From a virus (Duplodnaviria; Heunggongvirae; Uroviricota; Caudoviricetes), in IMG/VR virus record IMGVR_UViG_3300029267_003506: a stretch of 64,000 nt of DNA. One strand, given 5' to 3'. Numbering within the stretch: position 1 is the first letter of the stretch; each line of letters starts with the position of its first letter. This document shows positions 32,990-61,666 of this stretch, piece by piece. A program made the position numbers and the translations under genes. The notes below the pieces were generated by a model. The model saw only the letters and a program-made list of their open reading frames with translations, was not told where the DNA came from and made no database searches.

Positions 32990-33583
32990 TTATGTGCCGA
33001 GAATGCGCGTCGCCAAACGCAGCAATTTCCTCACGGTTGCCTGCCTCTGTTTCTTCGCTTTCTCGTCCTTGTATTGCCTCAATAATCCTGGGAGAGCCTT
33101 CCAGCATGCCCTCTTTTCCTCGTCCCAGTCGTGTCTCAGTTCCTCGTCGCTACCACGCGGCACAAAACCGTCTTTCGTCCGCATGAGCCACCAGTTGCCC
33201 TCTTCCCTGGGCACGATGATACAAAACCTTTCCCCCGAACTAATGGGTCCGCCGCCCTCGTACTTCTGAATCCGAAAATAGTAGGTGCCTTGCTGCCAGT
33301 CTCCGCCCGCAGCGCATAGTTCGCACTTGCACCTCATCTTGTCGTTTACTGGTTTTCCGTCCTTCGCAGACTCAAAGGCATCTTCAGGAGTGTCGATAGC
33401 AACACGACGCTGCTCGATTGCATCGTCGTTCTCCAGGTTAAACTGAATACCCTGGCTTTTTTGAGCCTCTTTAACCTTCTCGCGCCAGTCGTCCCTGGCA
33501 AGGTCGCTCACGTCAAAGAAGTGCTTATCAAGTCTAGCCATGTCTCTCTCAATCCAGTGGTTCAAACCCAAAACTGTCCACAA
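32990..33583 (-). CDS. hypothetical protein
   Basis: 197-aa ORF. Confidence 0.5.
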   Translation of the reverse strand: MWTVLGLNHWIERDMARLDKHFFDVSDLARDDWREKVKEAQKSQGIQFNLENDDAIEQRRVAIDTPEDAFESAKDGKPVNDKMRCKCELCAAGGDWQQGTYYFRIQKYEGGGPISSGERFCIIVPREEGNWWLMRTKDGFVPRGSDEELRHDWDEEKRACWKALPGLLRQYKDEKAKKQRQATVRKLLRLATRILGT

Positions 33584-33971
33584 TCCACGCTTTGTTGCCG
33601 ATTTTGATTACGTCGCCGACAGACATAGACGTGTGATGTGCGCCTGACTTGCGAATGAAATCACGCGCCTCCCCGCCGGGTGACCACCTCTCACCTTGCA
33701 TCATGGCGAATATCTTGTTCAGGTTCGCCTCCTTGATGGAACCCAAAAGCACGTGTGTCTTTTTGAGCACCTTCGGGTCGGGCACTAATCCTTGCTTGCG
33801 CAGCCAATTCATTCCCATCATCCCGTCCCGCGCAAAACGGTCGTTCTGATACCAAATTTCGGTGCGTCCCGGAGCCAGTCCCTTCTCAAAAACCTCGAAA
33901 TCATTCAAGGTCCGAAACTGGGCAATTAGAAGCCTCGCCACAGCCAATATTTCTCTTGCGATACGTTCCAT
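33549..33971 (-). CDS. peptide-box family member (divergent N-terminal box MERIAREILAVARLL)
   Basis: N-terminal amphipathic box, then a unique C-terminal part. Confidence 0.5.
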   Translation of the reverse strand: MERIAREILAVARLLIAQFRTLNDFEVFEKGLAPGRTEIWYQNDRFARDGMMGMNWLRKQGLVPDPKVLKKTHVLLGSIKEANLNKIFAMMQGERWSPGGEARDFIRKSGAHHTSMSVGDVIKIGNKAWIVDSFGFEPLD

Positions 33972-37112: not shown

Positions 37113-37700
37113 TTATGACCGCGCCCCAAATCCTTCCATTTCCAGCAACTCAACCGCTGCTAGTTCGTCTTCCGGCATCGTCTTCGACAGCGCCAGGACC
37201 CGTACCGTCACCCCTCGCGAATCGCCCACAATCCATGCCGGTTCCTTCCGAAAATCCAATTCCGGAATGTCACGCTCGATGGCAAACACTTCACGCTTTA
37301 ACCGCTGACGAAGTTCCTTCTCTGTCGCCGTCGCCCAACCAACAGAAACCAGGGAACCAGCAGGACCAATCGTCGTCTCAAATCCCAAAACAAACCCGCG
37401 CGCCGTGTAAGAGTAGAACTTCTCCGTGCGCACTGCAGCCGTTTTCTCGACCTCGGAGGCTACTTTCCGTTCTTCCAAATCCGGGAATTGGGACTGAATC
37501 TCCCTGGCTAACCACAGAGTGCCCTTTTCCTCTGCCTTTTCAAGCATCTGGTCAATCCTCCGCGCCGTCGCCGGAGAAAGCCCCCGTAGCCGGTTCCCGT
37601 CGTCGCGTAGCATCCACATGGCAAGGTTCAATGCCCACTTCTCGACACGAGCCGCTAGACAGATGACCTCATTCGCGATACGTTCTGCGATGCGCTTCAT
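37113..37700 (-). CDS. peptide-box family member (divergent box MKRIAERIANEVICLA)
   Basis: N-terminal box variant. 195 aa. Confidence 0.5.
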   Translation of the reverse strand: MKRIAERIANEVICLAARVEKWALNLAMWMLRDDGNRLRGLSPATARRIDQMLEKAEEKGTLWLAREIQSQFPDLEERKVASEVEKTAAVRTEKFYSYTARGFVLGFETTIGPAGSLVSVGWATATEKELRQRLKREVFAIERDIPELDFRKEPAWIVGDSRGVTVRVLALSKTMPEDELAAVELLEMEGFGARS

Positions 37701-38122
37701 CGGAACCCCTTTATCAGCGGAACTATACCCTTATCTGGCAGCCCTGTTTCCTTCTTGCCGAGAATCTTGTCCTTGTCGAGACCCAATCCGAAGATGTCCG
37801 AGAACTCAATCAGCCCACGCGGCCCCTCGCCGCTGTAGCCCCATGAGAACCCATCGAAATTGTGCGTCGCCCTGTGGCCGTCGCTCGGGCGCACAAAGTC
37901 CACCTCCAGGTCCCAGTTGACACCCGTCTTGTCGTACTCGTAGACCGGGTCATCTGCAATCTCATAGCCAGCGCCCTTGATGAGCCGGGCGTTCGCGATG
38001 CTGGCTCTGGTTGCCCCCTCGGTCTTTAGCTGTAGGGGTCTCATAATCGTGAACGGGCTTTTCACAGCCTCCAGCAGCTTGGCCACCCGTATGAGTTCAC
38101 CCGCAATGCGCCTGTCGTCCAT
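37697..38122 (-). CDS. peptide-box family member (MDDRRIAGELIRVAKLL)
   Basis: Canonical N-terminal box. RBS GGAGGAA. Confidence 0.6.
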   Translation of the reverse strand: MDDRRIAGELIRVAKLLEAVKSPFTIMRPLQLKTEGATRASIANARLIKGAGYEIADDPVYEYDKTGVNWDLEVDFVRPSDGHRATHNFDGFSWGYSGEGPRGLIEFSDIFGLGLDKDKILGKKETGLPDKGIVPLIKGFR

Positions 38123-42456: not shown

Positions 42457-42840
42457 TCAGCCTTTCAGCGGGCCTGTCTTCTCGTAGCCCCTGTCCCGAA
42501 GAATTTCCTCTCCGCTGTTCTCGTCGGCAAACTCGACAATGCCGTTCAGGATAACATACAGACCTTCTTTCGGAATGACCAGCGCCGTCTTCGCCCAGTA
42601 AATATCCTTCGCCTCGGGACTCAATCCTTTCACCTCGGACATGGCCACCTTTTTGATGTCTTCCTCGGTGTCTATGATTCCTTTGACTGTCCGGCTGCGC
42701 CCCAATGTTGCCCTCACGTGCCCGCGAATCTGGATGTGGAATTCGCCGTCACCTTTCGACAAATAGGTCTTGGTGCCTTTGTAGGCCGTCAGGTTCTTGG
42801 CCAATTGCACCAGATCTCGTGCTACCCGTCTCTTGTTCAT
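42457..42840 (-). CDS. peptide-box family member (MNKRRVARDLVQLAKNL)
   Basis: Start at the box Met, 42840, with RBS GGAGAAAACC. The ORF track extends further upstream in frame. Confidence 0.55.
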   Translation of the reverse strand: MNKRRVARDLVQLAKNLTAYKGTKTYLSKGDGEFHIQIRGHVRATLGRSRTVKGIIDTEEDIKKVAMSEVKGLSPEAKDIYWAKTALVIPKEGLYVILNGIVEFADENSGEEILRDRGYEKTGPLKG

Positions 42841-44707: not shown

Positions 44708-44722
44708 ACAAAAAGTGAATTT

Positions 44723-44911: not shown

Positions 44912-44916
44912 AGCCC

Positions 44917-44928: not shown

Positions 44929-44990
44929 AGATCAGCCATTTTGGGATGCAAACATGAAAAAAATCCAGAATTCAACGGCATTTGCTCTTT

Positions 44991-45003
44991 GAGACCGGTT
45001 ATA
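44991..45003 (+). promoter_or_regulatory. conserved phage motif GAGACCGGTTATAAGG
   Basis: 22 nt upstream of the ATG at 45026. Opens the second plus-strand island. Confidence 0.5.
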
Positions 45004-45025
45004 AGGAAAGTAAGGAGGAAACCCG

Positions 45026-45193
45026 ATGAAAGCCGTGCTGATTGACGTTCGCAACAAACAAATCCGGGATGTGCATTGCGACGGTACGCTCGAAAACATC
45101 TACTCCCTCACAGGCTGCAGGCTCATCCAACCGCTGGACAGAAAGGAAATGAAGTTTGGGAGTGGTGTAGCCAAGAAACTGGTCAATGCTTAG
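45026..45193 (+). CDS. small hypothetical protein
   Basis: 55-aa ORF, too short for the ORF track. RBS AAGGAGGAA. Preceded by GAGACCGGTTATAAGG. Confidence 0.35.
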   Translation: MKAVLIDVRNKQIRDVHCDGTLENIYSLTGCRLIQPLDRKEMKFGSGVAKKLVNA

Positions 45194-45206
45194 AAAGGGT
45201 AAAACC

Positions 45207-45683
45207 ATGGGATATGAAACGCACATTGTTATAGGTTTCCTTGGAGATCCTGTACCAGAACTGGCAAAAGATTTGACTAACCCATATGAAGATGGGTCTG
45301 GGTATCCATATAAAAAGGATAAAGCCGGAAACCCAATCAAGACGGGGCGTATGCAACGATACTTGATGCCTGCTGTGCATCTTGACCTTAGCAAAATCGA
45401 CTATAGCAACCTCGACTTGTTGCATGATAAGTACCTTAAGGTCACCGAAGAAAATCAAAATGAGTTTGTGTATTTTTATCACAGTGACAGGTGTACCGAG
45501 TTTTCTGAAGACAACTATGGCGATCCACTTGTCTTGGTTCCTTTCAAGGATGTCTTAGAGGCGGTGCGCACTGACGTGCAGAACAGCGATTATCGCCGCT
45601 TTCGGTGGTTGCTGGGACTGATGGAAGCCATGGCACTAACCGATAACTCAAAACACCTGGTATGCGTCTTCTATGGAACGTGA
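45207..45683 (+). CDS. hypothetical protein
   Basis: Start MGYETH with RBS AAGGG. Confidence 0.45.
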   Translation: MGYETHIVIGFLGDPVPELAKDLTNPYEDGSGYPYKKDKAGNPIKTGRMQRYLMPAVHLDLSKIDYSNLDLLHDKYLKVTEENQNEFVYFYHSDRCTEFSEDNYGDPLVLVPFKDVLEAVRTDVQNSDYRRFRWLLGLMEAMALTDNSKHLVCVFYGT

Positions 45684-45918
45684 TAACATTACACAAGAGG
45701 CTTTTCTCCACTCCGAAACGCAGGGCTTTCTTGCCCGGTTTTCGCCTCGCCCTATTCTGGAGAGCGCTCTGATTCTTGGCACGGACCCTAAAACCGGAGA
45801 AGCCACCGACACAACTCTCAACGCAAACGACATCGAGGTTCAGTTCCTAAAATTCGACACTGCGCCCGAGCCACCGCCAGCCATTTTCCTGGTTTTGGAG
45901 GATGACCAAGATGCCTGA
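45673..45918 (+). CDS. hypothetical protein
   Basis: 81-aa ORF. Confidence 0.4.
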   Translation: MERDNITQEAFLHSETQGFLARFSPRPILESALILGTDPKTGEATDTTLNANDIEVQFLKFDTAPEPPPAIFLVLEDDQDA

Positions 45919-46252
45919 CACGAAAACAGCCCCGGAAACCGTACCCAAATGCCACGGTAACTACGACAGCCGTTTTTCCTGCGAGGACTGCGGATTCCAG
46001 CAAAGTTGCCGCAAAAGCCGCGCGTTTGTGCAGCACATACAATCCATTGCACAATGCTACGGCGAATACGAACCGGAAAACCAAAATTGCGAACAATGCT
46101 TACTTGTGGAGCACTGTCAATCCGCCACAGACGGCTGTCCCCGGGAACACTGCGGAATAGAGACGGGAACGCTTGCCGGTCTGAAATCCGCAATTGAGGC
46201 GTCCACCGCAGAAACACCGTTCTTCCTGGAACCGCCCAAAGGCGTATCCTGA
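45902..46252 (+). CDS. Cys-rich hypothetical protein
   Basis: CHGNYDSRFSCEDCGFQQSC...CEQC...C. Confidence 0.45.
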   Translation: MTKMPDTKTAPETVPKCHGNYDSRFSCEDCGFQQSCRKSRAFVQHIQSIAQCYGEYEPENQNCEQCLLVEHCQSATDGCPREHCGIETGTLAGLKSAIEASTAETPFFLEPPKGVS

Positions 46253-46283
46253 CAATTTGAAGCCTTTTAGAAAGGAAAGAACC

Positions 46284-46631
46284 ATGGAACTCGTCATCAC
46301 GGCTGTCCCCACAAACGAGAACCGCATACCAGCCATCAAAGCGCTCCGCGAAGTCACTAATCTGGGGCTCAAGGATTCAAAACTCATCATTGACTCGGTC
46401 GCAGCCGGTGAAACACGGCAAATCTCCCTCAACAAGGAAAAAGCCACCCGAGCGACAACAACACTCCACAACGCCGGCTTCACCTTCTCCACCTACGACC
46501 CAAGTGACGACATTATCCAACACATCAAGGCAGCCATCCAATTGGCAACTCAGCGAGAAATGCCTTCCGTGCTGCCGCATCTCACCGTGGCTTTTGCAAA
46601 AGCGCTTGAACTGAAAGAACAAATCACATGA
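46284..46631 (+). CDS. ribosomal protein L7/L12 C-terminal-domain homolog (stand-alone CTD)
   Basis: IPAIKALREVTNLGLKDSKLIIDSVAAGE...LNKEKATRATTTLHNAGFTF aligns with the bL12 CTD ([26 protein letters not shown]...). No N-terminal dimerisation or L10-binding domain. Confidence 0.6.
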   Translation: MELVITAVPTNENRIPAIKALREVTNLGLKDSKLIIDSVAAGETRQISLNKEKATRATTTLHNAGFTFSTYDPSDDIIQHIKAAIQLATQREMPSVLPHLTVAFAKALELKEQIT

Positions 46632-46840
46632 AATATCTCATTTGGAGCATCGAGCACAATGCCTGGTGGGCTCCCAACTCGCGGGGATACTCAACCGAAC
46701 TCAGCGGAGCCGGTATCTACGAACGGAACGAGGCGAGTAAAATCATCCGAGGCGCAAACAGGTGCGGCGAAACCAACGAATGTATGATTCCGGTCGCCGC
46801 GATGCTCTCTGGGCTCCACGCAGAAACAGAAACAGAGTAG
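46628..46840 (+). CDS. hypothetical protein
   Basis: 70-aa ORF. Confidence 0.4.
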   Translation: MKYLIWSIEHNAWWAPNSRGYSTELSGAGIYERNEASKIIRGANRCGETNECMIPVAAMLSGLHAETETE

Positions 46841-47009
46841 GTGAAAACGTCCCTGATCCAAACAGTAGAACTCAAGGGACCGCTCGAATAATCAGCAACT
46901 GTCCTGACACGCCTTCACATGAGTGGATTCAAAGCCACAAGGGGAGGTCCAGACGCAGATGACCCCGCCAACCGTTATCATGTGATTGCTGACAGGCGAG
47001 TACTCTAGG

Positions 47010-47489: not shown

Positions 47490-47924
47490 TCAGAACGTCA
47501 TCTGACCGCGCATTCTCTTTTCGAATTGCTTCAGTTCCCTGCGTTCTGCGGAGGTCAGGTCAGGTTCTTTGTCCCAGAGTTCCTTGACCCTCTGGCGTTC
47601 TCTCTTGTTCAGGTTGCTCGGTTCGTCCGCCGCTACGATTTCCTTCGCCAACCGCAGCAACTCGGATGCTACCGCAGAGGCAGACAGGTTCCTCATCAAG
47701 CCCTTCTTGTTTTTGATGACTTGTTGCAGCCCTCGGATTACGCTCTTGGCTCCGTCCTCGCTCAGGTTCTCCACTGATTCGCCCCTCTGAATCTTCTTCA
47801 GGGCATCTTCGTACCAACGCAGGTCAGCCTCGTCCTTTTTCAATGCGGCTTCCCATTCCTTCTTCGTCGTCCTGGGCATCTGACTCCTCCATCTAACCGT
47901 CGCGCAAGTTTTCTTACGCGACAA
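47490..47924 (-). CDS. peptide-box family member (box internal: SAVASELLRLAKEIVAA)
   Basis: The box lies at about aa 84-97. An alternative start MRNLSAS at 47696 would make it N-terminal. Confidence 0.5.
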   Translation of the reverse strand: MSRKKTCATVRWRSQMPRTTKKEWEAALKKDEADLRWYEDALKKIQRGESVENLSEDGAKSVIRGLQQVIKNKKGLMRNLSASAVASELLRLAKEIVAADEPSNLNKRERQRVKELWDKEPDLTSAERRELKQFEKRMRGQMTF

Positions 47925-48094: not shown

Positions 48095-49444
48095 CTAGAA
48101 CATCATACTCGGCAATTTTATTCCCAAAGCGTGTGCTGCCTTGAAGATGTTGTTTCTGTGAAGGTCCGCTCCCCTTACATGACCGCTCACGCTCATCTTT
48201 AGTCGGTTTATGGCTTCCCTCTGATTGCGGTCAGGCGTGAAATCCTTAGCAAGTTGAACCGCAACCTTGAGTGCCAGTTCATACGTCTGCTCGTCTACTT
48301 CGCTTTTCAATTTGTGAATGTCCTTCGGGTCAATCAGGGCATAGAACAAACTTTCAGATGCTTGCCTGTTGCCTTCTTCTGAGGCGCTTTTCTTCTTCAG
48401 TGCTGCGAGGTCCTTTTTTAACGCAGTTTCGACCTTCTTGATGTCAACGTCGTCAAGATCAAGATGTCCAGCAAGAGCCTTCAGACTGGCAACGTCTTCC
48501 CTGAGCGCCTGTTGTACCCGGTTGCGCAAGAGTTTGAGGTCGAGCTTGTCACCTTCGGCTTTCGTTGCCTTGTCGTGAAGAGCCTGCATTTCCTTCACAG
48601 CGTCTTGGACCTTTTTCTTGGCTTCCTCTGGCGTCATGTTTTTGGTGGGTGCGTAGGTAATCCTCTTTGCCAGCCGCACCAATTCTCTCGCGACCTGTCT
48701 CATCTCTGCTCCTTCTCTCGGATGTTTCCAGACCCGTTCCTGCCGGCTACATCCCTTCGGTTTTCCGTGGCACGTTCTTTTCCGCTGCTTTTCCATTTCT
48801 CTCTGGATTTGCTGCTTGTGTTTCTGGTTGTATTTCCGTTGCTCTTTGATTTTTTTCTTGCGCTGGATTCCCTTTAATGGTGGTTCCTTGGTTACAGCCA
48901 TTTGCGTCGCCGAAGAAGTTACCATCTCCGTCATGACCTTCGTAATCTTTTCCTTCAGTTTTCTGAGGATGTACGCCGGCACCTTCCTTAAAGCGAGGGG
49001 TATCGTCCTGATTATGCTACCCATTTCGTCATCCATCAAGAGGGCGCGCGCATGGTGCATTCTGCTGCTTATCTCCTTTTCACCATTTTTCTCCATGACC
49101 ATTAGCAAGCCATCGTATGCCTCTCGCGCCAGCTCCCCGACGAGGGCATTTTTGAACGTTTTCATAGCCTGCTCAAAGCGCTCCTGGATACCCTTAATCT
49201 CCTTCTGTACTCGGTGTTTACCATCCGGAGTGTAGTAGTGTGTGAACCAGTACCACAGCCCAGCAGACTTTACGATGCCAAACCAGGCACGTCGTAGTGA
49301 TTTCGACGTTAAAATCACGTCAGCCCACCAATTCAGCGGCAACCGGTCAAGGCAAATCGTCATACAGCTCGCGTGAACGGGACCATATTTCCCCTTCACG
49401 CGCTTGCATGCTGCCAAAACAAAATCAGGGACCTCGTCTGTCAT
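48095..49444 (-). CDS. peptide-box family member (box internal: MRQVARELVRLAKRI at about aa 248)
   Basis: 449-aa ORF. There is an in-frame ATG at 48702 with RBS GGAG, so it could be two products or one protein with an internal box. Confidence 0.5.
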   Translation of the reverse strand: MTDEVPDFVLAACKRVKGKYGPVHASCMTICLDRLPLNWWADVILTSKSLRRAWFGIVKSAGLWYWFTHYYTPDGKHRVQKEIKGIQERFEQAMKTFKNALVGELAREAYDGLLMVMEKNGEKEISSRMHHARALLMDDEMGSIIRTIPLALRKVPAYILRKLKEKITKVMTEMVTSSATQMAVTKEPPLKGIQRKKKIKEQRKYNQKHKQQIQREMEKQRKRTCHGKPKGCSRQERVWKHPREGAEMRQVARELVRLAKRITYAPTKNMTPEEAKKKVQDAVKEMQALHDKATKAEGDKLDLKLLRNRVQQALREDVASLKALAGHLDLDDVDIKKVETALKKDLAALKKKSASEEGNRQASESLFYALIDPKDIHKLKSEVDEQTYELALKVAVQLAKDFTPDRNQREAINRLKMSVSGHVRGADLHRNNIFKAAHALGIKLPSMMF

Positions 49445-49454: not shown

Positions 49455-49799
49455 TTATCCGGTCACAACAATCCTGGCTATCTTCACCAGTTCAGAAGCC
49501 ACGTTAAGCGCCAAACCGGTAGGAACAGTATGGTATCTCGCCAGACTAATGGGATAGCGCCGGTCGTTCGTCAAACGCACTCTTAATGCCGTTTGTTGAT
49601 CCTTCAGCATGATCTCTTTTTGACTGCGCTTCGACACTTTCCAGCCGGCAGAAGTCAAAACATCCACAACGCCGAAAATGTCATCGCTCGACACTAAGAA
49701 TCGTTCTATCGCGCCACTCATCGCGTCGGGTTTCTCAACCACGCGAAAGCCTGCCCGCTTGAGAGTGTAGGGTATCGCAGGTTTGGCTCGTCGCTTCAT
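49455..49799 (-). CDS. peptide-box family member with the box at the C-terminus (ALNVASELVKIARIVVTG-stop)
   Basis: 114-aa ORF. Confidence 0.5.
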   Translation of the reverse strand: MKRRAKPAIPYTLKRAGFRVVEKPDAMSGAIERFLVSSDDIFGVVDVLTSAGWKVSKRSQKEIMLKDQQTALRVRLTNDRRYPISLARYHTVPTGLALNVASELVKIARIVVTG

Positions 49800-51307
49800 T
49801 TTCTCGTGTCCCAGCGCGTCACAGTCAAATCAGGATCGACCGTGAACAAAAAAGCACCCGAGTTGTTTATCGGATTCAATGCCTCGTTTTCCTTGAACGT
49901 CACTCTCCACACCGCCGTTCCGTAGGAGTTACCAGGATAGACATACGCTCTTTGCTCGTGCTTTCCGGCATAGTAGCCCCCAGAGATAACCGCGCTGTTA
50001 ACATCTCCCTTGTTCCGAGCCTTGAGTTTCATTCCCTGGAGTTGCTCGGTTACTCGCTTTTCGGCACGTCCATTCGTCATCCGCAATTTCATGCTAGCCC
50101 TTTTTGCGATTTTCACCATCTTCAGTCGGGCGCGCTTCACTTTTTTGATGACCTCGCCGTCTGATTCGAATTCCCCCGCGATGGTCATGGTCTTGCCCTT
50201 AAGCACTGGTCTGGGAGAAACATCCTCGTATCCATTGAGCCACGCATCAAAATCATCTGCCATGTCTTGAGGCAAGTTCCTGTCCAACCAATCAGCGCTT
50301 ACCATGATAAAACAACGTTCAGGGTAACGCTTATCCACTCCTCCTAAACCGACCGAGGTTCCGTACTGTCCTTCGTAAACCTTCACGAACTGTATCTTCA
50401 GTTCTAGTTCAGTCTTAGTAGGAGCCCGTGGAAATCCTTCGAGTGCGTCCTTTGTACTCTCCCTCTCGGCATCTTCTAACATGCGTTCCCACATCTTGTC
50501 TGGAATACGCACACCGTCATCTAATTCCCCCAGCCATTTCTTCCAGAAATCGTTGTCGCCCAACCATTCTTTGGCAAAGTCGATTTCTTTCCGGTGCTCA
50601 TCAAACCACGGATCTTCTTTCTCTTCTTGAACGAGCCCGAGATTTGCTGGGCGGTCAAACGTAACTTGGAAACCGACAAGTTCAGGACCTAGCCCCTCCT
50701 TCTCGTTGTACTTCATCTTGCCTTTTAACTCTCGCACAATACCGTAATCATCGACAAAATACACGTAGAGCATGTATCGCTGCTTTTTGCCCCAGTTTCT
50801 CCCGTGCCAGTATTCCGTACCAACAATGCCCGTGTAAGGCTGGGAAGGTGCCTTGGCAAGCATCTTAGCAGAAAAATAGCCACTCGTCGGGCTCTTGCCA
50901 CCTCTCTGAATCATACGTTTGATGAAGTCACGTTGCTTCGGGGACTCCCAAAGACCATTGTTGCTCTTTGTCAAAGACCTCAGTGACCGATATAGCCGTC
51001 CCTGCGGTTCTCCTCCCCCTGCTTCATCCATCAAGAACTTTGCCCTGGAACCCAACAGCAAGTCGGCAACTCTGATTAGTTCGACAGCAATACGCCTGTC
51101 TGTTGTCTCACCGTCTTTTTTCACCGACATCCTTGCCGTGCGTTTCCGGGCTTTCAGTCTGGGCTTCTGCCTGTCTATTTCCCACTGCCCCTTTCGCATG
51201 ATCCAAGGCACACCTTCATACCAAAACAACGTCGCCCCCATCTGCGCCGCCGTTGCTTTGGCTTTTTGGAAAGTAATGTTGGTATATGTGACGTCAGCGA
51301 TACTCAT
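49796..51307 (-). CDS. peptide-box family member (box at aa about 70: TDRRIAVELIRVADLLLG)
   Basis: 503-aa ORF. ATGA overlap with the upstream gene. Possible alternative start MSVKKDGETTDRR. Confidence 0.55.
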   Translation of the reverse strand: MSIADVTYTNITFQKAKATAAQMGATLFWYEGVPWIMRKGQWEIDRQKPRLKARKRTARMSVKKDGETTDRRIAVELIRVADLLLGSRAKFLMDEAGGGEPQGRLYRSLRSLTKSNNGLWESPKQRDFIKRMIQRGGKSPTSGYFSAKMLAKAPSQPYTGIVGTEYWHGRNWGKKQRYMLYVYFVDDYGIVRELKGKMKYNEKEGLGPELVGFQVTFDRPANLGLVQEEKEDPWFDEHRKEIDFAKEWLGDNDFWKKWLGELDDGVRIPDKMWERMLEDAERESTKDALEGFPRAPTKTELELKIQFVKVYEGQYGTSVGLGGVDKRYPERCFIMVSADWLDRNLPQDMADDFDAWLNGYEDVSPRPVLKGKTMTIAGEFESDGEVIKKVKRARLKMVKIAKRASMKLRMTNGRAEKRVTEQLQGMKLKARNKGDVNSAVISGGYYAGKHEQRAYVYPGNSYGTAVWRVTFKENEALNPINNSGAFLFTVDPDLTVTRWDTRK

Positions 51308-51594
51308 TTCACGGTTGCCTTTGCCTGCTCAAAGAGACCATGCACCGTCGAATTCATTGTGCGCAGAGCCGGAATGATGTGGGCGTCAATAATATCCGGA
51401 GAAATCGTCCTGCCTGCTCCTGCCCGCTGCGCTCCCTTAAGTTGCCTCTGAGCAGCGTCCACGGCTTTCTGCACCCGATCTAAGTCCTGCTGCAGAATCT
51501 TCACCAACGAGTCACCGCTCTCGATAAGCCGGGTTGCCTGTTCCCACTGCTTTTCGCTATATGCTACGCGCTCGGCAATTTCGTTTTGATTCAT
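51304..51594 (-). CDS. hypothetical protein (MNQNEIAERVA...)
   Basis: Start at 51594. Its N-terminus resembles that of gene 58176..58526 (MNQEQVADRVA...). Confidence 0.45.
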   Translation of the reverse strand: MNQNEIAERVAYSEKQWEQATRLIESGDSLVKILQQDLDRVQKAVDAAQRQLKGAQRAGAGRTISPDIIDAHIIPALRTMNSTVHGLFEQAKATVK

Positions 51595-51607: not shown

Positions 51608-52024
51608 TCAAAAAGCCTGCAGACGGAATTTCTGTCTCTTAACGACTTTCTCCGCAGCAGCAACATCGTCAGCAGAAAACGAAGCGCCCCCGGAGACGTA
51701 CATGCGACCACCAACATTCAACAAGACAGCATCCGTCGGCTTCTCGGTTATCCTGTACGCCGAACCATTTCCCTTCAACCCAGCCTCGACAGCGGAGAGT
51801 TTCTTAGCCATCTGCTTGACTGCATCATTGGCGTCGGCGTTGACGTCCTTGAGAATGTCACCAGTTCTTACCTCCCTGAGTGCTTGCAGGATAATTGAGT
51901 CACCGATAACGTCATACACGAAAAACATCCCAGCCGCTTCTTTTGCCCCGCCAACGAGTTCCTTGGCTAGGCGCACCAATTTCTCGGCTACCATCTTATC
52001 TGAAACACGCGCCTTCTTACTCAT
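51608..52024 (-). CDS. peptide-box family member (MSKKARVSDKMVAEKLVRLAKELVGG)
   Basis: 138-aa ORF. Confidence 0.55.
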   Translation of the reverse strand: MSKKARVSDKMVAEKLVRLAKELVGGAKEAAGMFFVYDVIGDSIILQALREVRTGDILKDVNADANDAVKQMAKKLSAVEAGLKGNGSAYRITEKPTDAVLLNVGGRMYVSGGASFSADDVAAAEKVVKRQKFRLQAF

Positions 52025-52047: not shown

Positions 52048-52524
52048 TTAAACCGATGCCTCAACGCTCACCATCTTACTCATCACATCCTTGAATGCAT
52101 CCAAGGCAACATTGAGTTTTTTGACAGTGTTCCGGATAACAGGCTCCCGGCTCCGCTTCATCTTATCCCTGACCGCAGTAAACTCGTCCTGCAGCCTTTC
52201 TAGCCGTGAAATAGCCATTGCGATTACTGAGCCCATGTCCGCGCCAGCAACAGGACGATGAGAAGCCGTCAAGTACAAACTCTCAGCACTCCTTTTCAAC
52301 CGAGCCAGCAAAGTCACCATGCTCTTGAGGGCGTCATTTAACAAACTCGCGGCGTCAGGATTGGACTGGCGCAGGTCACGATACCACCGATTCAGGGAGT
52401 TGTATTCAGTGTCGAGTTTGTCAATCAGTTCATAGGGAAACTTCGTTTGCCACTCGTCCACTTCAGGAGAAATATCTCTGGCGATGGCAACCAGTTCCTT
52501 GGCGATCTGAATGTTGTTCATCAA
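52048..52524 (-). CDS. peptide-box family member (variant MMNNIQIAKELVAIARDI)
   Basis: 158-aa ORF. Confidence 0.5.
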   Translation of the reverse strand: MMNNIQIAKELVAIARDISPEVDEWQTKFPYELIDKLDTEYNSLNRWYRDLRQSNPDAASLLNDALKSMVTLLARLKRSAESLYLTASHRPVAGADMGSVIAMAISRLERLQDEFTAVRDKMKRSREPVIRNTVKKLNVALDAFKDVMSKMVSVEASV

Positions 52525-52583: not shown

Positions 52584-52979
52584 TCATGTAAAAACCGCAG
52601 CCAGGTGAGCAGCGATCCTACGAACCGGAAGAACACCCTCACCCTTCACCCAGTTCATCATATCGGCTTCGTCGCTCCAATCAGACCGTTTCCCGCTCAG
52701 GTGGATTTCGAACTTTTCACCCTCGAAAATGATACTCAGCGTCGCCGTCGCAGCAATGTCACTCGCCGCGTAACCACTCATGAACATATTGTATTCCCGC
52801 GCGGCACGATGGGTACGCTGAATTTGCCGGATGCCTTTGAACTCGGACTTGATCTGCTTCTCCAGGTCATCCATTAGATCGCTGTAGGCACGATGGAGAT
52901 ACGCCGTCACACGCAAATCGTCAGCCTTCGCCATCAGCGTCTTCGCCATCCTCAATAGCGCACTGGCTACCTCTTTCAT
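52584..52979 (-). CDS. peptide-box family member (MKEVASALLRMAKTLMAK)
   Basis: Start at the box Met, 52979. The ORF track extends to 53051. Confidence 0.5.
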   Translation of the reverse strand: MKEVASALLRMAKTLMAKADDLRVTAYLHRAYSDLMDDLEKQIKSEFKGIRQIQRTHRAAREYNMFMSGYAASDIAATATLSIIFEGEKFEIHLSGKRSDWSDEADMMNWVKGEGVLPVRRIAAHLAAVFT

Positions 52980-57736: not shown

Positions 57737-58165
57737 CTACCAAGAGCCTTTCACGACTTTGAACCCGTGATTGCTGGATGCCTTCTGTAGCCGAGCCATA
57801 ATCTCGTTGCTCCACTCCAGGTCTTGGTCATCGTCGATGCTCCACCGAATTCTCGTTGACGCGACAAACCACTCGCTTTTTGCCCAGAATCGCAGGGGAC
57901 GAAAATATTCGAAGCGAGCCATGTGCTGGAAGGATTTCACAGCGTCATTCAATCTCTTGAAATCGCCCTCTGAGTCGCTGGCTTTTGTCTGGAGACTGCG
58001 CACTACATCTTTCCACTCGTCCCCCTCTTCCAACTCGACAACCCAGCGGAACACAATATCAACGAGTTTGCCCTTGCTGTTGATAAAAACTTGTTTGCCC
58101 GTCCAGGAACCAGCGAGTTCCTTGGCCATCCTCACGAGATTGCGTGCTACTCGTCTGTCGTCCAT
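57737..58165 (-). CDS. peptide-box family member (MDDRRVARNLVRMAKELAGS)
   Basis: Start at the box Met, 58165, with RBS GGGGAGG. Confidence 0.55.
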   Translation of the reverse strand: MDDRRVARNLVRMAKELAGSWTGKQVFINSKGKLVDIVFRWVVELEEGDEWKDVVRSLQTKASDSEGDFKRLNDAVKSFQHMARFEYFRPLRFWAKSEWFVASTRIRWSIDDDQDLEWSNEIMARLQKASSNHGFKVVKGSW

Positions 58166-58175
58166 TGTGCCTCCC

Positions 58176-58526
58176 CTATCTCGGAAAAATCTCTCTGCGC
58201 TGTTTGTCAGCGTAATCATCCGGTGTGCCGAATTGCTTGATGAATTTGCGCTCTGCCCCTGCGACGCGGTCAAACGCCTTGGTAGTCAGTGCATTGATGT
58301 GTTTGAGGAGTTTCCCAATGAGCACCACCATCTCCTTGGCATCCCTCTCCCCTGGTCCGCCGGAATAAGAGGCAGCAATGTCGTACCTGTCCCCCACCTG
58401 CCGCAGGGCTGTCTCGGCATCGTGCAACTTGTTCCATATTGGGTCAAGCGCCTCATTCACGGTCTCTGGTCCCATTAGAGCCACGACATGATTTGCCACC
58501 CTGTCAGCCACTTGTTCCTGGTTCAT
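58176..58526 (-). CDS. hypothetical protein (MNQEQVADRVANHVVALMG...)
   Basis: 116 aa. ATGA overlap with the upstream gene. The out-of-frame 296-aa ORF-track ORF that contains it was rejected. Confidence 0.45.
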   Translation of the reverse strand: MNQEQVADRVANHVVALMGPETVNEALDPIWNKLHDAETALRQVGDRYDIAASYSGGPGERDAKEMVVLIGKLLKHINALTTKAFDRVAGAERKFIKQFGTPDDYADKQRREIFPR

Positions 58527-59188
58527 GTCACCACCTCCCTTACCTTGCCCGGCTCTATTGCCTGCCAGCCGCTCATCATCCGCAAGAACCTCTTCACCGC
58601 GAAGTCGTCCCCGCGCATTAGCAAGTCCTTCGACTTGTTCCACAGCCAAACCACAGGCCGCTTGCCCATGAGCGGATGGCTGCCGTACTTGCTGAAGGCG
58701 ATGTTGGCTTGCTGCATCGCCTGCTTCGGGTCGCCCTTTATCTTGAAGGCCCTGAGTTTGACTTTCTGTTCGTACTCCTCGCGCTGTCTCTTCTCTTCCT
58801 TGGCTTGGGCTTCGAGGTTCGTCACCTTGCGCTGGATGCCCTCGACCTGGGACTTGCTCAACTCGCGCCGGTATCCCAGGGCGACATGCAGGTGGTCGGC
58901 TCCGTAGGGCTCGACCTTCCCGGTTTCCTTGTCCTTCACCCAGTAGACGTGGACAATCTTCCGGCCACAGCTCTTGCACTTCTCGGCGTTGTCCCAGTCG
59001 CTCACCTTCGCGGAGACAAGGCCGTCCTCGCGCTTGCTGTATACCTCGTCCCATTTCCAGCGCCACTCGTATGCAACAGCCTCATTACCGTTTGGACCTT
59101 CAAATGTCTTGCTAAATGAGCGAGGTGGTCCGGATGTGAGAATCCGGGCTACCTTTAGCAACTCTTGGGCGAGGAGGCAGTCGTCCAC
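58523..59188 (-). CDS. peptide-box family member (variant MDDCLLAQELLKVARIL)
   Basis: 221-aa ORF. Confidence 0.55.
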   Translation of the reverse strand: MDDCLLAQELLKVARILTSGPPRSFSKTFEGPNGNEAVAYEWRWKWDEVYSKREDGLVSAKVSDWDNAEKCKSCGRKIVHVYWVKDKETGKVEPYGADHLHVALGYRRELSKSQVEGIQRKVTNLEAQAKEEKRQREEYEQKVKLRAFKIKGDPKQAMQQANIAFSKYGSHPLMGKRPVVWLWNKSKDLLMRGDDFAVKRFLRMMSGWQAIEPGKVREVVT

Positions 59189-59194
59189 GGTTCA

Positions 59195-59677
59195 TCAGTC
59201 CAAATCAAAATCGCTCAGAGTCGCCGTCCACTTGATCTTCGCTTTCTGATAGTCCGGGAAATTGCGCAAAAACGGCCCCACTTCACTGGCATGTTTGAAG
59301 TAAAGCGGCTCGCCAAAGTCACCATCAACCGTTGTGATTTGCACGATGTAGTTGTATCCCTTCGCCTGCATCTTCTTGGCGACAGCCTTCTCCTTGTTGG
59401 AAAGAGCCGGAGCACCTGCAACCAGCGCCTTCGCCAGTCGCACAAGTTCCGTCGCCAACTCCTCTTTCGCCATCGGACACTCATCCGTACCACCCATCGG
59501 TCCTGTGCCATCCTGGGGACCTCTGCGAAGGTAACGTCTCCCTCGTGCCATCGGAGCATCATCTGTCATCGGGCACTCATCCGTACCACCGCAAGGACCA
59601 CTGCCATCAGGAATACCAGGTCCCATGATGCTGCCCGCAAGCCGCACAAGTTTCTTCGCCAATTCTTTCCTGTCCAT
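59195..59677 (-). CDS. peptide-box family member with two boxes and an internal duplication
   Basis: MDRKELAKKLVRLAGS...GSGPCGGTDECPMTDD // ...GTGPMGGTDECPMAKEELATELVRLAKALVAG. Confidence 0.55.
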   Translation of the reverse strand: MDRKELAKKLVRLAGSIMGPGIPDGSGPCGGTDECPMTDDAPMARGRRYLRRGPQDGTGPMGGTDECPMAKEELATELVRLAKALVAGAPALSNKEKAVAKKMQAKGYNYIVQITTVDGDFGEPLYFKHASEVGPFLRNFPDYQKAKIKWTATLSDFDLD

Positions 59678-59769
59678 CTCTTGCTCCCCTATGTAATCTC
59701 AATGTCCTCAACCAATTATAGCCCCGGGCGAATGACCACAAACTTCTCACAGGCGATGAGACCCGCGCA

Positions 59770-60201
59770 TCAGTCCAGCCAATTCGTGAACTTCCCTACG
59801 TTGGGGTTCTTTTCCAAGTACTCAACGACGGCTCCCGCGCCTTTTGCACCGCCGAATTTGACCACATACGGCACCGTCAACAACACAGAACTCGGTTCAC
59901 TCGCCTTTGAACCCATGCGCACGTCACCATCCGGTCTCATTTCCGCAGGCGACTTTGAAGCCACTTTCTCGACCCGTTCCCCAAAACGCTTCATTATGGT
60001 CGCAATGCCCTTGGCGTCTTCGCGGATGAAACTCACCTCCTGGCGAAAATACACACTGCCAGTCACCTCACCGCCATCAAGTGTGACCCAGAGACCACGA
60101 TAGGCAGCCTTCCTCGCTCGGGGTGTTCCGGAAACGTCAACTTTTGCCGTCAGTTCCTTTGCCAGTCGCACCAGTTCAGCAGCCACTCGTCTCTCATCCA
60201 T
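59770..60201 (-). CDS. peptide-box family member (MDERRVAAELVRLAKELTAK)
   Basis: 143-aa ORF with the canonical box. Confidence 0.6.
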   Translation of the reverse strand: MDERRVAAELVRLAKELTAKVDVSGTPRARKAAYRGLWVTLDGGEVTGSVYFRQEVSFIREDAKGIATIMKRFGERVEKVASKSPAEMRPDGDVRMGSKASEPSSVLLTVPYVVKFGGAKGAGAVVEYLEKNPNVGKFTNWLD

Positions 60202-60216
60202 CCCTCAACTCCTGCT

Positions 60217-60561
60217 TCAGAATGCCATGTAAATACGCTCGGCGGTTTCTTCATCAAACTCGCGCCTTACCTGTTCGATGCCCTTTTTGTAGAATTTGTC
60301 GTAAACCACCTTGCGAAGTCCAGCCGGCATGCTCCCAAAATAGTCTCGCAGGGCAATCACCGCACGCATCGCACTGGCAGCCTCCCTGTCCCGCAGCACC
60401 TTCGCGAATAGGTACAACAATGACTCCGAAAACCTATTCGAATCCGTCATGCGCTGAATAGTCTTGATGTGTTTTTCAACATCCACCGCCGTGCGTTTAC
60501 GGTCACTGCTTACCCCTTTCGCCAGCCGCACCAGTTCAGCAGCCACTCGTTTTTTGTCCAT
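60217..60561 (-). CDS. peptide-box family member (MDKKRVAAELVRLAKGV)
   Basis: Start at the box Met, 60561, with RBS AGAGGGA. Box DNA is almost identical to that of gene 59770..60201. Confidence 0.55.
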   Translation of the reverse strand: MDKKRVAAELVRLAKGVSSDRKRTAVDVEKHIKTIQRMTDSNRFSESLLYLFAKVLRDREAASAMRAVIALRDYFGSMPAGLRKVVYDKFYKKGIEQVRREFDEETAERIYMAF

Positions 60562-60607
60562 CTCAATCCCTCTCTTCGCGCAAACCTTGTTACCCGCTAC
60601 TTCCTCT

Positions 60608-60964
60608 TCAGACATCAACGACCACACCGATAAATGCCTCGCGCCCGTCGAGACCTGCCTGCACCTTCCCAGTACCACCAAATCTCTCGATTACGCTCCC
60701 GTCGTCGTCAAGCCCATCCATCTCAAACGTGAAACCGTGTTCCGAGCCCGACAACATCGGATTCTGCCAAATCTTCGTAAACTTCAATGAACCTTTGACA
60801 TAGCGAACATTTGGCGTGAAAGCATTGGGCACTTCCTTTTCCAGCATGCGTTCCACTCTGCGCTGGTACTTCACTGGCTTCCCAAAAGTCCCGAGACTGT
60901 AAACACCAGAAACGAGTCTTTTAGCCACCCGGACAAGTTCTCGCGCTACCTGTTTCTTGTTCAT
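60608..60964 (-). CDS. peptide-box family member (MNKKQVARELVRVAKRLVSG)
   Basis: Start at 60964 with RBS AAGGGGA. Confidence 0.55.
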   Translation of the reverse strand: MNKKQVARELVRVAKRLVSGVYSLGTFGKPVKYQRRVERMLEKEVPNAFTPNVRYVKGSLKFTKIWQNPMLSGSEHGFTFEMDGLDDDGSVIERFGGTGKVQAGLDGREAFIGVVVDV

Positions 60965-61023
60965 AATTCCCCTTTCGCTCGCCTGCTTTTCAGGAGGGTG
61001 AACGGCAACCAATCAACGTCTCC

Positions 61024-61371
61024 TCAGTCAATCTTGTCTTCTACTTCTCCGGCACCGTCATCCAACATCTCTTGTTCATCCGGCACCAACTCATTGAGAA
61101 GCCTTTGAAATTCACCAACATGCACCCGCTCCTCGTCGGCGATATCCTGAACGACACTCCGGACAAGTTCATTATCCGTCGCATCAGCAATGAATTCGTA
61201 GAGGTGAACCGCTTCCTCCTCCGCCGCGAGACCCTGACGCAGTAGCCTGGTCAACTCACGCTCGTTCACCTTGCGATCAGGGTCCAGGCAAACGCTCGGA
61301 TTGACAAATTGACCACCACTCAGAACCTTGGCAATGCGTACCAACTCTGCTGCAACGCGCTTGTTCGTCAT
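61024..61371 (-). CDS. peptide-box family member with ferritin-like ExxH pair
   Basis: MTNKRVAAELVRIAKVLSGG... then EEEAVHLYEF...DEERVHVGEF (two E-x-x-H motifs). Start at 61371 with RBS AGGAAGAG. Confidence 0.5.
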   Translation of the reverse strand: MTNKRVAAELVRIAKVLSGGQFVNPSVCLDPDRKVNERELTRLLRQGLAAEEEAVHLYEFIADATDNELVRSVVQDIADEERVHVGEFQRLLNELVPDEQEMLDDGAGEVEDKID

Positions 61372-61381
61372 CGGTCTCTTC

Positions 61382-61666
61382 CTATCTGAGTTTCTTGAGT
61401 TCTCCGAGGTAATTGGAACTACTGAGGGCATCAATCGCCTTCTTGATGACCGCCCGGATTGCCTTGATTGCCTTGTCGCGCTCTGACGGCTCTCCTCCCG
61501 GTTTCGCCACAAACGAATCTGAAAGCCTGTCATCGAGTTTCGCCAAAACCGTGAAAGCCTTGCCTATCTCCTTCCGCACATCGCCATCCAAGCCGGCTAT
61601 GCGCTCTGCAGCAATCATTTCCTTGGCAATCCGCACCAGTTCTCCTGCAATCCGTCTCTCGTCCAT
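61382..61666 (-). CDS. peptide-box family member (MDERRIAGELVRIAKEMIAA)
   Basis: 94-aa ORF. Confidence 0.55.
   Translation of the reverse strand: MDERRIAGELVRIAKEMIAAERIAGLDGDVRKEIGKAFTVLAKLDDRLSDSFVAKPGGEPSERDKAIKAIRAVIKKAIDALSSSNYLGELKKLR

Follow-up and report, generated by a model that had tools for sequence, protein, structure and literature searches.

A 19-residue amphipathic peptide, called the box here, is carried by at least 18 otherwise unrelated proteins of one uncultured tailed phage. The phage is represented by a 64,000-nucleotide stretch of the IMG/VR record IMGVR_UViG_3300029267_003506 (Caudoviricetes), and this whole stretch is referred to as the window. The box is selected as a peptide, is modular in its position within proteins, is attached to unrelated bodies and occurs in one phage lineage. 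On an encapsulated ferritin (EncFtn) it occupies the place of the peptide that loads cellular relatives into encapsulin shells. This tag is probably a new signal, not homologous to known ones, that loads proteins into a capsid-like shell. We lean towards reading it as a portable cargo-loading peptide, with the interior of the assembling, phage-G-like head as its likeliest destination.

Results

An encapsulated ferritin carries the box in place of a loading peptide

Among the box proteins of the window, protein B (115 amino acids (aa); 61024..61371, minus strand) is the only one whose body has a known fold. It opens with the box MTNKRVAAELVRIAKVLSGG at 61312-61371 (30.7 bits), which a short linker connects to an EncFtn domain at residues 21-115. 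Searches against solved structures returned P. furiosus EncFtn (5n5e, 1.1e-13 over residues 21-112), PfV (2e0z, 3.2e-12), the P. furiosus encapsulin-EncFtn fusion particle, and M. xanthus EncC (7s8t, 1.6e-11), and the Pfam family Rubrerythrin was matched at 1.7e-7. The AlphaFold2 model comprises a helix at residues 3-14, a coil at 15-24 and EncFtn helices at 37-64, 68-95 and 99-114, the latter with a predicted local distance difference test (pLDDT) score above 92. The metal ligands E51, E53, H56, E80, E81 and H84, which give an E-x-x-H motif on each long helix, are invariant in an alignment of 58 sequences.

The cellular relatives of protein B carry a different signal. In a search of 5.8 billion proteins, it was 60-69% identical, over the ferritin domain only, to proteins of 100-130 aa from metagenome-assembled genomes, for example those of Brocadiia and Planctomycetota. 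The loading peptide T[VI]G[DSNE][LIM][KR] ends at least 41 of its 120 closest homologues, with cellular examples such as ..VPTVGDMKE, ..LTVGDLKE and ..PTVGDLKE, and about 15 more end in variants recognized by eye. One cellular homologue (P0068; loci and proteins are cited by our own L and P numbers) is encoded in a locus with Fur, rubrerythrin and peroxiredoxin genes, with a Linocin_M18 encapsulin shell gene immediately downstream of it. Protein B itself ends in ..GAGEVEDKID right after the EncFtn domain, with neither a C-terminal linker nor a TVGSLK-type loading peptide, and its box is N-terminal. The EncFtn protein of the metagenomic locus L105 (P0112) also lacks a TVGSLK-type peptide; it bears the box RRVAHEIVKIARMIVEG at its C-terminus, after the last EncFtn helix, where the linker and loading peptide of cellular proteins begin. 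In L033 and L088 the box stands at this same point after EncFtn and is followed by 54 further residues, and the EncFtn protein of L060 has an N-terminal box together with a decayed C-terminal copy. In all, four related phage contexts combine EncFtn with the box, which can stand on either side of the domain.

EncFtn is decameric and needs a shell to store iron, and to our knowledge it is known only as shell cargo. Judging from these sequences, the phage appears to have captured EncFtn and exchanged its shell-loading peptide for the tag used on at least 17 other phage proteins. No other line of evidence available argues as strongly that the tag directs loading into a shell, and into one other than the host encapsulin. 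Further close EncFtn homologues (P0002, P0004, P0027, P0021, P0093 and P0062) have termini extended in other ways, matching neither the box nor the classical peptide (for example N-terminal MKRIRTAGLKKKIKNYKTA or C-terminal AAWVRSIIKK), and these extensions may represent further tag types.

The box is conserved as a peptide

A profile was built from 185 unique boxes, and its scores were compared with a null of reversed or shuffled open reading frames (ORFs) from the same region. The 19-residue consensus reads M1 [DN]2 [RNK]3 x4 [RK]5 [VI]6 A7 x8 E9 L10 V11 [RK]12 [LIV]13 A14 [KR]15 [ES]16 L17 [VT]18 [AGS]19. Across the 185 boxes A7, L10 and A14 are conserved at 98-99% (A7 at 98%), and E9 at 89%. 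An Asp or Asn at position 2 is a classic helix N-cap. Positions 6-19 make up two heptads (V-A-x-E-L-V-R / L-A-K-E-L-T-A) whose hydrophobic face is broad, and A, G or S at positions 19-20 terminates the helix.

A first-pass annotation of the window, made from the DNA letters without database searches, had described the box as an amphipathic helix followed by a Gly/Ser-rich stretch. The helix is well supported, with a hydrophobic moment of 0.45 against a median of 0.26 for windows of the bodies; AlphaFold2 places it at residues 3-14 in protein B and 3-17 in a second box protein, protein L, and in both models a segment of low confidence comes next and the body folds separately. The Gly/Ser-rich stretch was not recovered as a general linker: small residues are enriched solely at positions 18-20 (position 19 is A, G, S, P or T in 94%), and from position 21 onward the composition equals that of the bodies. 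The annotation had also pointed to two A-x-E sites resembling the cleavage consensus of phiKZ-type prohead proteases. The first of these, A7-x-E9, is conserved and is the only such site, lying mid-helix with conserved residues on either side, whereas A14-K15-E16 is not, as E16 is present in 42% of the 185 boxes. The cleavage argument is weak, given that the second site is unconserved and that the head protease of this phage matches neither a peptidase family nor a solved structure.

Synonymous codons vary freely between box copies; since these sites are free to vary, the conservation lies in the peptide and not in a DNA repeat. The boxes of one locus share what may be called dialects: amino-acid identity at box positions 2-5 is 0.46 within loci and 0.25 between them. 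The corresponding codon identity is barely raised (0.58 within a locus, 0.47 between loci), so that the dialects are not due to gene conversion. A DNA repeat or regulatory element was considered and ruled out, because synonymous sites vary and codon identity within a genome scarcely exceeds that between genomes. The genome-specific dialects suggest co-evolution with a partner that the phage itself encodes, be it a receptor or the remaining boxes, and a conservation stricter than amphipathicity needs points to a specific packing partner. In a wider set, a Shine-Dalgarno-like motif precedes 176 of 192 box starts, compared with 34% of random positions. Pfam and PHROGs left the box unmatched in ten members, and a text search of a library of papers did not find the box peptide strings.

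The box is restricted to one lineage of uncultured huge phages

A degenerate DNA pattern, M-x4-[VI]-A-x-E-L-V-R-x-A-K, retrieved 76 metagenomic loci, many of which match it exactly two to four times, and the profile identified 253 boxes when these loci (360 kb) were scanned. Among the 233 boxes from outside this phage, Met occupies the first profile column in 195 and Val in 12. Clustering the 192 unique box proteins (median length 113 aa) by body similarity gave 168 clusters, of which 151 are singletons. An unbiased profile search, of the kind proposed in the first-pass annotation, yielded 160 proteins at E<=1e-3 among 1.84 billion representative proteins. At least one box of 9 bits or more is present in 148 of the best 150 of these 160 matches; two matches with the look of repeat artefacts, P0169 and P0231, were false positives on inspection. 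Within the same best 150, 123 boxes are N-terminal, 66 internal and 9 C-terminal. Two boxes occur in 46 of these proteins and three in 2, including box-spacer-box proteins of 76-114 aa, in a top-scoring list that over-represents multi-box proteins because scores add up. Ten matches that were looked up are unannotated metagenomic singletons, save one labelled 'hypothetical protein'.

Other collections gave few or no boxes. A 45-column version of the profile found nothing at E<=10 in a word-indexed database of 5.8 billion proteins, where E-values are scaled too strictly for a motif of 20 residues. Two pattern scans of IMG/VR returned 14 loci, all chance internal matches, and then 3 loci, of which only L017 has boxes above noise. 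A tblastn search with a 25-aa box, which detects only near-identical boxes, had no match in 50,697 GenBank phage records. One genome each of 185,579 cellular species contained no box, the 5 pattern matches all being chance occurrences inside unrelated proteins. The tag is restricted to one lineage of uncultured huge phages. Several box-bearing loci clearly come from relatives of this phage: the portal proteins of L024 and L123 are 62% identical to its own, and the terminase of L123 is 57% identical.

Box proteins of the window

In 79.5 kb of this phage, 20 boxes score at least 10.6 bits (10.6-34.9), against a null maximum of 4.3 bits. An array of nine consecutive, tightly packed minus-strand genes at 57737-61666 accounts for nine of these boxes; eight genes open with a box, one does not, and the gene at 59195-59677 alone holds two. 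The first-pass annotation had counted ten consecutive box genes in this interval; the gene at 58176-58526 does not score. Its description of near-identical N-termini and of two boxes in 59195..59677 was confirmed on the minus strand as quoted, at 15-35 bits for the array genes, and so was the lack of mutual similarity among the C-terminal parts. Its coordinates located the array correctly and were too narrow for the system, as further boxes lie at 33.5-53 kb. Nor is the box the start of one globular domain shared by whole proteins, a possibility that the annotation had raised, since the bodies are not one family. Each box Met in the window has a Shine-Dalgarno-like motif upstream.

All genes of the array are on the minus strand. 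Protein A (94 aa; 61382..61666) has its box, MDERRIAGELVRIAKEMIAA, at 61607-61666 (29.8 bits) and a helical body of unknown function without a match in the family search. Protein B, the EncFtn protein, comes next, followed by protein C (118 aa; 60608..60964; box MNKKQVARELVRVAKRLVSG, 34.9 bits), which was likewise without a family match and whose body is beta-rich judging by its sequence. The body of protein D (114 aa; 60217..60561; box MDKKRVAAELVRLAKGVSSD, 29.4 bits) appears helical by the same measure; a Shine-Dalgarno-like AGAGGG lies 5' of its box Met, and public gene callers place the start further upstream. Protein E (143 aa; 59770..60201; box MDERRVAAELVRLAKELTAK, 33.4 bits) and protein I (142 aa; 57737..58165; box MDDRRVARNLVRMAKELAGS, 32.4 bits) have bodies without an assigned function, and identical copies of protein E are found on the ENA contig k141_1556585 (116.7 kb) and the JGI contig Ga0309772_1000243 (98.8 kb). 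Protein G (221 aa; 58523..59188) has a GTG start, a degenerate box, (V)DDCLLAQELLKVARILTSG, that scores 15.2 bits against the null maximum of 4.3, and a body with a CxxC motif and a charged helical stretch.

Protein F (160 aa; 59195..59677) is the two-box member, with boxes at 59618-59677 and 59414-59473 (24.4 and 22.6 bits). The second begins 68 residues in, and two PDG[ST]GPxGGTDECPM repeats lie between them. Homologues of protein F occur at five metagenomic loci. Post-box repeats of the form G-P-G-[IV]-P-D-G-[TS]-G-P-x-G-x-T-x-E-C-P, which Pfam does not match, are common to protein F and its relatives (L073, L062, L089, P0133 and P0192), and the repeat resembles the GDGTGP motif of small DUF5320 proteins from anaerobes.

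The remaining gene of the array, gene H (116 aa; 58176..58526), is called as a gene in the public assembly, has the N-terminus MNQEQVADRVANHVVALMG and starts MNQEQVADRVANHV. It is absent among the box-profile matches of at least 2 bits in the window scan, and its N-terminus looks like a decayed or variant tag, with a faint resemblance. A similar start, M-N-[EQ]-x-x-[IVL]-[AV]-[DE]-[KR]-[IVM]-[VA], is found in several non-scoring genes (58176-58526, 51304-51594, 448-720 and 37113-37700 on the minus strand, and L105 7855-10001), with examples such as MNQEQVADRVA, MNQNEIAERVA, MNEERLDKMVT and MNEEKIAEKIV. From their sequences, these starts may belong to a second, more degenerate tag class or be decayed boxes. 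The gene at 448-720 lies within the head module and is conserved in L123.

Outside the array, the profile scan located N-terminal boxes at 52979, 52521, 52006, 42840, 38122 and 33971, internal boxes in proteins of 503, 449 and 129 aa, and one C-terminal box; a further N-terminal box lies on the same contig 2 kb past the right end of the window. All of the window genes concerned are on the minus strand. Three proteins lie close together: one of 131 aa (52584..52979; N-terminus MKEVASALLRMAKTLMAK, 14.3 bits), with weak homologues in L087 and L020, one of 157 aa (52048..52521; N-terminus MNNIQIAKELVAIARDIS, 22.0 bits) and one of 138 aa (51608..52024), in which a six-residue extension, MSKKAR, precedes the box VSDKMVAEKLVRLAKELVGG (25.6 bits). 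The 503-aa protein (49796..51307), unmatched in family searches, has a weak internal box, TDRRIAVELIRVADLLLG, at residues ~70-87 (~51050-51100; 10.6 bits). Its neighbour of 114 aa (49455..49799) carries the box ..LALNVASELVKIARIVVTG at the C-terminus, directly followed by the stop codon (13.9 bits). The 449-aa protein (48095..49444) is charged and helical, with an internal box, MRQVARELVRLAKRITY, at residues ~248-266 (~48650-48706; 18.2 bits), and its residues 360-449 are 46-53% identical to the bodies of small stand-alone box proteins in L020, L070 and L092. The 129-aa protein (47490..47879) also has an internal box, AVASELLRLAKEIVAAD, at ~47630-47680 (21.2 bits). Two further N-terminal boxes belong to a 127-aa protein (42457..42840; MNKRRVARDLVQLAKNLTAY, 26.4 bits) and to protein L (141 aa; 37697..38122; MDDRRIAGELIRVAKLLEAV, 25.9 bits), which has an alpha/beta body. 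The box of a 140-aa protein (33549..33971) is decayed (MERIAREILAVARLLIAQ, 12.9 bits). This protein is 46-50% identical to box proteins of L060 and L059, its orthologues having a good box (MDRKRVALQLVRLAKSLVAA in L060), and L060 is syntenic with this region and also holds the neighbouring 1018-aa gene.

About 95% of the bodies lack a Pfam or PHROG match. About seven of 148 metagenomic box proteins match Pfam (DUF5661, DUF2958, DUF7273, winged helix, zinc ribbon and EncFtn/rubrerythrin), and 145 further box proteins gave similarly few matches to Pfam and PHROGs, a handful of DUFs. The bodies lean basic, with a median isoelectric point of 8.25 and 49% above 8.5. In the AlphaFold2 model of protein L, the helix at 3-17 is followed by a low-confidence linker and a body with pLDDT of ~80, for which Foldseek found no structural match (best E 0.56). 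Several phages share recurrent mini-modules after the box, namely a CPxCG zinc ribbon, the PDGTGP repeat, and motifs of the EFPSQDALDKYLKEHPDADKSKH and KKGEVPEAFKKQWKNKDKD types. Post-box modules of the kinds EFP[ST]QDA[YL]DKY[ML]KEHPDADKSKHxVKK, KKGEVPEAFKKQWKNKDKD and the TFPCPDCGTKVLEQTGYCVKCKKKV zinc ribbon were observed in P0122, P0136, P0121, P0135, P0170 and P0129, and some box proteins are chains of box-plus-module units.

The phage, its head genes and the surroundings of the box genes

The window is a fragment of a phage-G-like huge phage and sits on metagenomic contigs of 99-133 kb, with nearly all of its genes on the minus strand. The terminase large subunit (5745-7586, minus strand; PHROG 3e-24) and the portal (3074-5089, minus strand; PHROG 8e-21) are encoded near its left end. 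Past window position 1, the same contig encodes a head maturation protease, a pair of acidic scaffold-like proteins, a small protein resembling decoration proteins, and a major capsid protein of 286 aa (L096 20897-21757). The capsid protein matches phage G gp27 (PDB 6wkk) at 1.2e-62 and is 69% identical to that of LR745208.1 (a 485-kb uncultured phage), 48% to that of Tunturiibacter phage Tunturi_5 (309 kb) and 38% to that of phage G; the major head protein of L096 matches phrog_2522 at 6.7e-54. The head protease (L096 16559-17551) matches phrog_18299 at 7.8e-15, with only weak zinc-ribbon matches in Pfam and neither a peptidase family nor a solved structure among its matches. In the roughly 80 kb read, the capsid protein gene is the only HK97-fold gene seen, and among 67 window proteins there was no match to the Linocin_M18 encapsulin shell or to a bacterial microcompartment (BMC) shell family (PF00936, PF03319).

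Ferritin-like proteins were also encountered in other phages. Eggerthella phage LE2-3, which has the same capsid-protein family, encodes an EncFtn domain within a 948-aa protein 2 kb upstream of its capsid gene. This 'ferritin-like superfamily protein' of the head module, LE23_74 (L104 5395-8241), has EncFtn at residues ~200-290 and at least eight spaced K/R-T-A-[SQD] motifs, spaced as if in a polyprotein with repeated processing sites. A ferritin-like protein has been detected in phage G particles in a multi-omics study (PMC12484599).

Neighbourhoods linking box genes to head genes are anecdotal, with one exception. The only relative of protein L found in the homologue search is its orthologue P0272 (56% identical), and in L123 the protein L orthologue is encoded inside the head-gene cluster, with the portal-side genes on one side of it and the protease and scaffold genes on the other. 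Elsewhere, L024 has box genes right beside its portal gene and L040 at the end of its terminase gene, and in L105 the distance from box genes to the terminase gene is 8 kb.

Some candidates were set aside. Segments of the two scaffold-like proteins (EGIARALLSLAQELTQEG and ASKAVRLAVLLLG) and of a 90-aa head-module protein (MNEERLDKMVTRIAADEG) that look box-like by eye score below noise and were not used. A search for the receptor through gene presence and absence was uninformative, since apart from terminase, portal, protease, decoration and capsid genes the relatives have none in common with this phage.

Several features of these regions were observed in passing. In L123, a topoisomerase I-family gene (PF01028; 2988-3752) is inserted between the terminase and portal genes, and the gene after the protease (14231-14683) has a box-like start, MDPTRELVHIARLLV, at 5.7 bits, just above noise. 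Directly downstream of the portal gene in the window, a 786-aa protein (717-3077, minus strand) contains a low-complexity repeat similar to circumsporozoite-protein repeats (E ~4e-7) and, at residues 417-503, a weak similarity to SUMO/SMT3-like ubiquitin folds (E 0.001-0.01). A phmmer search of this protein and the 1018-aa protein against solved structures gave nothing useful. A plus-strand gene island at 38700-46900 interrupts the minus-strand genome, with the AT skew changing sign at 38-42 kb; it encodes a metallophosphoesterase and, at 46284-46631, a protein resembling the ribosomal L7/L12 C-terminal domain (Pfam 3.8e-9 in a pooled scan, assigned by eye). In L105, inteins (Intein_splicing and LAGLIDADG) occur in the terminase and in a 2183-aa protein, together with an IS605 OrfB/Cas12f-like TnpB gene (coordinates of the intein and TnpB genes: 1023-7574, 15105-16067 and 18222-20357). 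The window also encodes, on the minus strand, a MoxR/CbbQ-type AAA+ ATPase (18302-19603) and two VWA proteins, a DUF2201 metallopeptidase-VWA and a CobT-like protein (12994-14304 and 25321-27183). Such a MoxR/VWA trio is known as a chaperone-like system, and it could be a candidate partner for the tagged proteins.

Discussion

The proposal of a shared address tag, first made in the first-pass annotation, has gained support from hundreds of unrelated bodies, from N-terminal, C-terminal and internal positions, from the place of the encapsulin peptide taken on EncFtn, and from the analogy with the capsid-targeting sequence (CTS) of phage T4. We infer from this pattern a targeting role, with the capsid as the target and a component of the head as the receptor. 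Pointing to the head are the capsid protein gene, as the only HK97-fold shell gene seen, and the very large size of a phage-G-type head. The protein L orthologue in L123, the head-adjacent box genes of L024, L040 and L105, the EncFtn domain of LE2-3 and the ferritin-like protein in phage G particles would agree with this, the gene neighbourhoods counting as anecdotal. In the mechanism that we envisage, one short N-capped amphipathic helix of two heptads, closed by a small-residue cap and borne at either protein end or between domains, would dock on a component of the phage head during prohead assembly. That component could be the scaffold, the inner face of the capsid or another box protein. 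Diverse small phage proteins, including the EncFtn ferroxidase, would in this way be brought to one common destination, enclosed in the procapsid and carried along with the DNA, as the T4 internal proteins are. Proteins with two or three boxes would serve as multivalent linkers that cross-link cargo in the same assembly. A fuller picture, which we hold more tentatively, is that of the megaphage head as an encapsulin-like container, with its own 19-residue loading helix, dozens of fast-evolving proteins, a ferroxidase retagged from a host encapsulin operon, and an internal matrix of multi-box proteins.

Several observations weigh against loading into the head. Box scans of the nearest public relatives covered LR745208.1 (485 kb, complete) and Tunturi_5 (300 of 309 kb), and neither contains a box, nor did these scans and the tblastn search bring to light a cultured phage with one; since their capsid proteins are 69% and 48% identical to that of this phage, the capsid protein alone does not predict the tag. 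No receptor was found; in the scaffold-like proteins (L096 18292-18990 and 19035-20081), the stretches that resemble a box by eye stay below noise in the profile scan. Head-gene adjacency in about 3 of the 76 short loci is about what chance would give in a genome of 300-500 kb, and the arrays of the window lie 26-60 kb from the terminase gene. The conserved residues that flank the only conserved A-x-E are a poor fit to a simple cleaved propeptide. Finally, multi-box proteins fit self-association equally well, whether or not a capsid is involved.

This last point leads to the rival that survives best, one that we nonetheless regard as rather unlikely, in which the box is a self-associating coiled-coil unit. 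It would bundle box proteins into a body or condensate, possibly a cytoplasmic assembly or viral factory, with two- and three-box proteins as cross-linkers and oligomeric cargo such as the decameric EncFtn as a multivalent node. In its two-heptad pattern, a wide hydrophobic face (V6/A7, L10/V11, L13/A14 and L17) is typical of helices that pack on more than one neighbour, within-genome dialects would keep the copies mutually compatible, and no separate receptor was found. The abundance of multi-box proteins, box-spacer-box forms included, argues in the same direction, although the counts are inflated in a list ranked by additive scores. However, two heptads alone bind weakly, and self-association leaves unexplained why the shell-dependent EncFtn exchanged a shell-loading peptide for the tag. 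It is also compatible with an inner body inside the prohead, and differs from capsid loading mainly in location.

We consider it decidedly improbable that the box docks instead on a hub other than a shell, such as a chaperone, an AAA+ protease adaptor for which it would be a degron, or an export machine, and thereby sets stability, folding or secretion. A short helix at one or the other terminus is a typical form of docking signal, and the MoxR-type ATPase with its two VWA proteins would provide a hub in the window itself; phage G is reported to encode ClpXP (PMC12484599). Against this, the tag is absent from the genomes of 185,579 cellular species, a host hub would give the dialects of single genomes no advantage, and the box lacks the hydrophobic core of a signal peptide. 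Internal boxes and box-spacer-box proteins would be odd for a degron, and the exchange with the encapsulin loading peptide would go unexplained. A box without any targeting role, whether the inherited first helix of fast-evolving paralogues or a favoured translation-start or recombination sequence, would suit the tandem gene arrays expected after duplication and the location of most copies at gene starts, but as an inherited structural helix or nucleic-acid signal it is largely excluded and scarcely credible, given 168 unrelated body clusters in 192 proteins, an EncFtn body 60-69% identical to box-free cellular proteins, C-terminal and internal boxes, codons whose lack of conservation misfits an RNA or DNA signal or recent gene conversion, and a helix that AlphaFold2 sets apart from the body behind a low-confidence linker.

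By analogy, the system would work like the T4 CTS, encapsulin loading peptides and BMC encapsulation peptides, and it appears to be a member of none of these, because there is no sequence similarity, no gp21-type protease match and no Linocin or BMC shell in the sequence seen, and because the box is more flexible in position and copy number. The T4 CTS is a peptide of about 10 residues, MKTYQEFIAE, that is removed by the gp21 protease (Peptidase S77) at L/I-x-E, and T-even internal-protein genes lie in hypervariable loci. Like the box, it is short, conserved and found at the N-termini of proteins of a single phage (IPI, IPII, IPIII and Alt) that are otherwise unrelated. The box differs in sequence, in its 19 residues and two heptads, and in occurring also at C-termini, internally and in multiple copies. 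The T-even internal proteins are highly diverse defence proteins with the CTS as their only common part, and the CTS suffices to load foreign proteins into the prohead core (PMC3012670).

The box shares with encapsulin loading peptides a variable linker to the cargo and EncFtn as a cargo domain, and its start in L105, L033 and L088 coincides with that of the linker and loading peptide in cellular proteins. Family 1 encapsulin cargo such as EncFtn and DyP carries at its C-terminus an extended ..TVGSLK-type motif that directs it to the lumen of an HK97-fold shell. The box, in contrast, is helical, mostly N-terminal and unrelated in sequence, and its presumed shell is a DNA-filled phage head; known encapsulins take one or few cargo types per shell, compared with at least 18 tagged proteins per 80 kb here. 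BMC encapsulation peptides, found at the N-termini of PduP, PduD, EutC and EutE and at the C-terminus of CcmN, are thought to bind the shell and aggregate cargo. They and the box alike are terminal amphipathic helices of about 18 residues, joined through a linker to unrelated proteins, and their residue patterns are very similar, as the EutC peptide MDQKQIEEIVRSVMAS illustrates. However, BMC peptides are conserved in pattern only, whereas the box is nearly invariant at A7, L10 and A14 and its context is a phage.

Other phages offer looser parallels. The C-terminal coat-binding helix-turn-helix of P22 gp8, a short basic amphipathic element, engages the inner face of an HK97-fold coat and is used in biotechnology to load foreign cargo into P22 particles; it belongs to one scaffolding protein and is not a multi-gene tag, and the scaffold-like proteins here have no scoring box. 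The propeptides of phiKZ and SPN3US and the Dar signals of phage P1 resemble the box in that large phages load many proteins into the head for ejection. Processing in phiKZ-like phages occurs at S/A/G-x-E, and we know of no shared portable tag defined for them. In the box, by comparison, only the mid-helix A7-x-E9 is conserved, and there is no homology to Dar proteins. Papers on P1 and giant phages do mention capsid targeting (PMC9024508, PMC5694885). Among the papers listed in targeted literature searches, there was no account of a shared tag in huge phages or of an encapsulated ferritin in a phage. Co-assembly of cargo-like proteins with procapsids, and biochemical functions of procapsids, have been put forward as a hypothesis in a recent preprint (bioRxiv 10.1101/2025.06.18.659913).

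The shared cargo would link phage heads with encapsulins, and the tag swap on EncFtn makes the idea in this preprint testable with a named protein and a named peptide. If loading into the head is confirmed, the box would be a new portable loading signal, clearly defined by its consensus and represented by hundreds of natural copies, small enough for direct tests and usable to pack foreign proteins into very large capsids. Protein B would be the first encapsulin cargo known to have been redirected in nature to a virus capsid, and direct evidence for the proposed equivalence of scaffold and cargo between procapsids and encapsulins. A ferroxidase in the virion would be a new kind of virion function, for example in protecting the DNA from iron chemistry, in phages recovered only from metagenomes. 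Furthermore, a large share of the small ORFan genes of megaphages could be given a location for their products and, if the analogy with T4 holds, a role as proteins delivered together with the DNA, for example against host defences.

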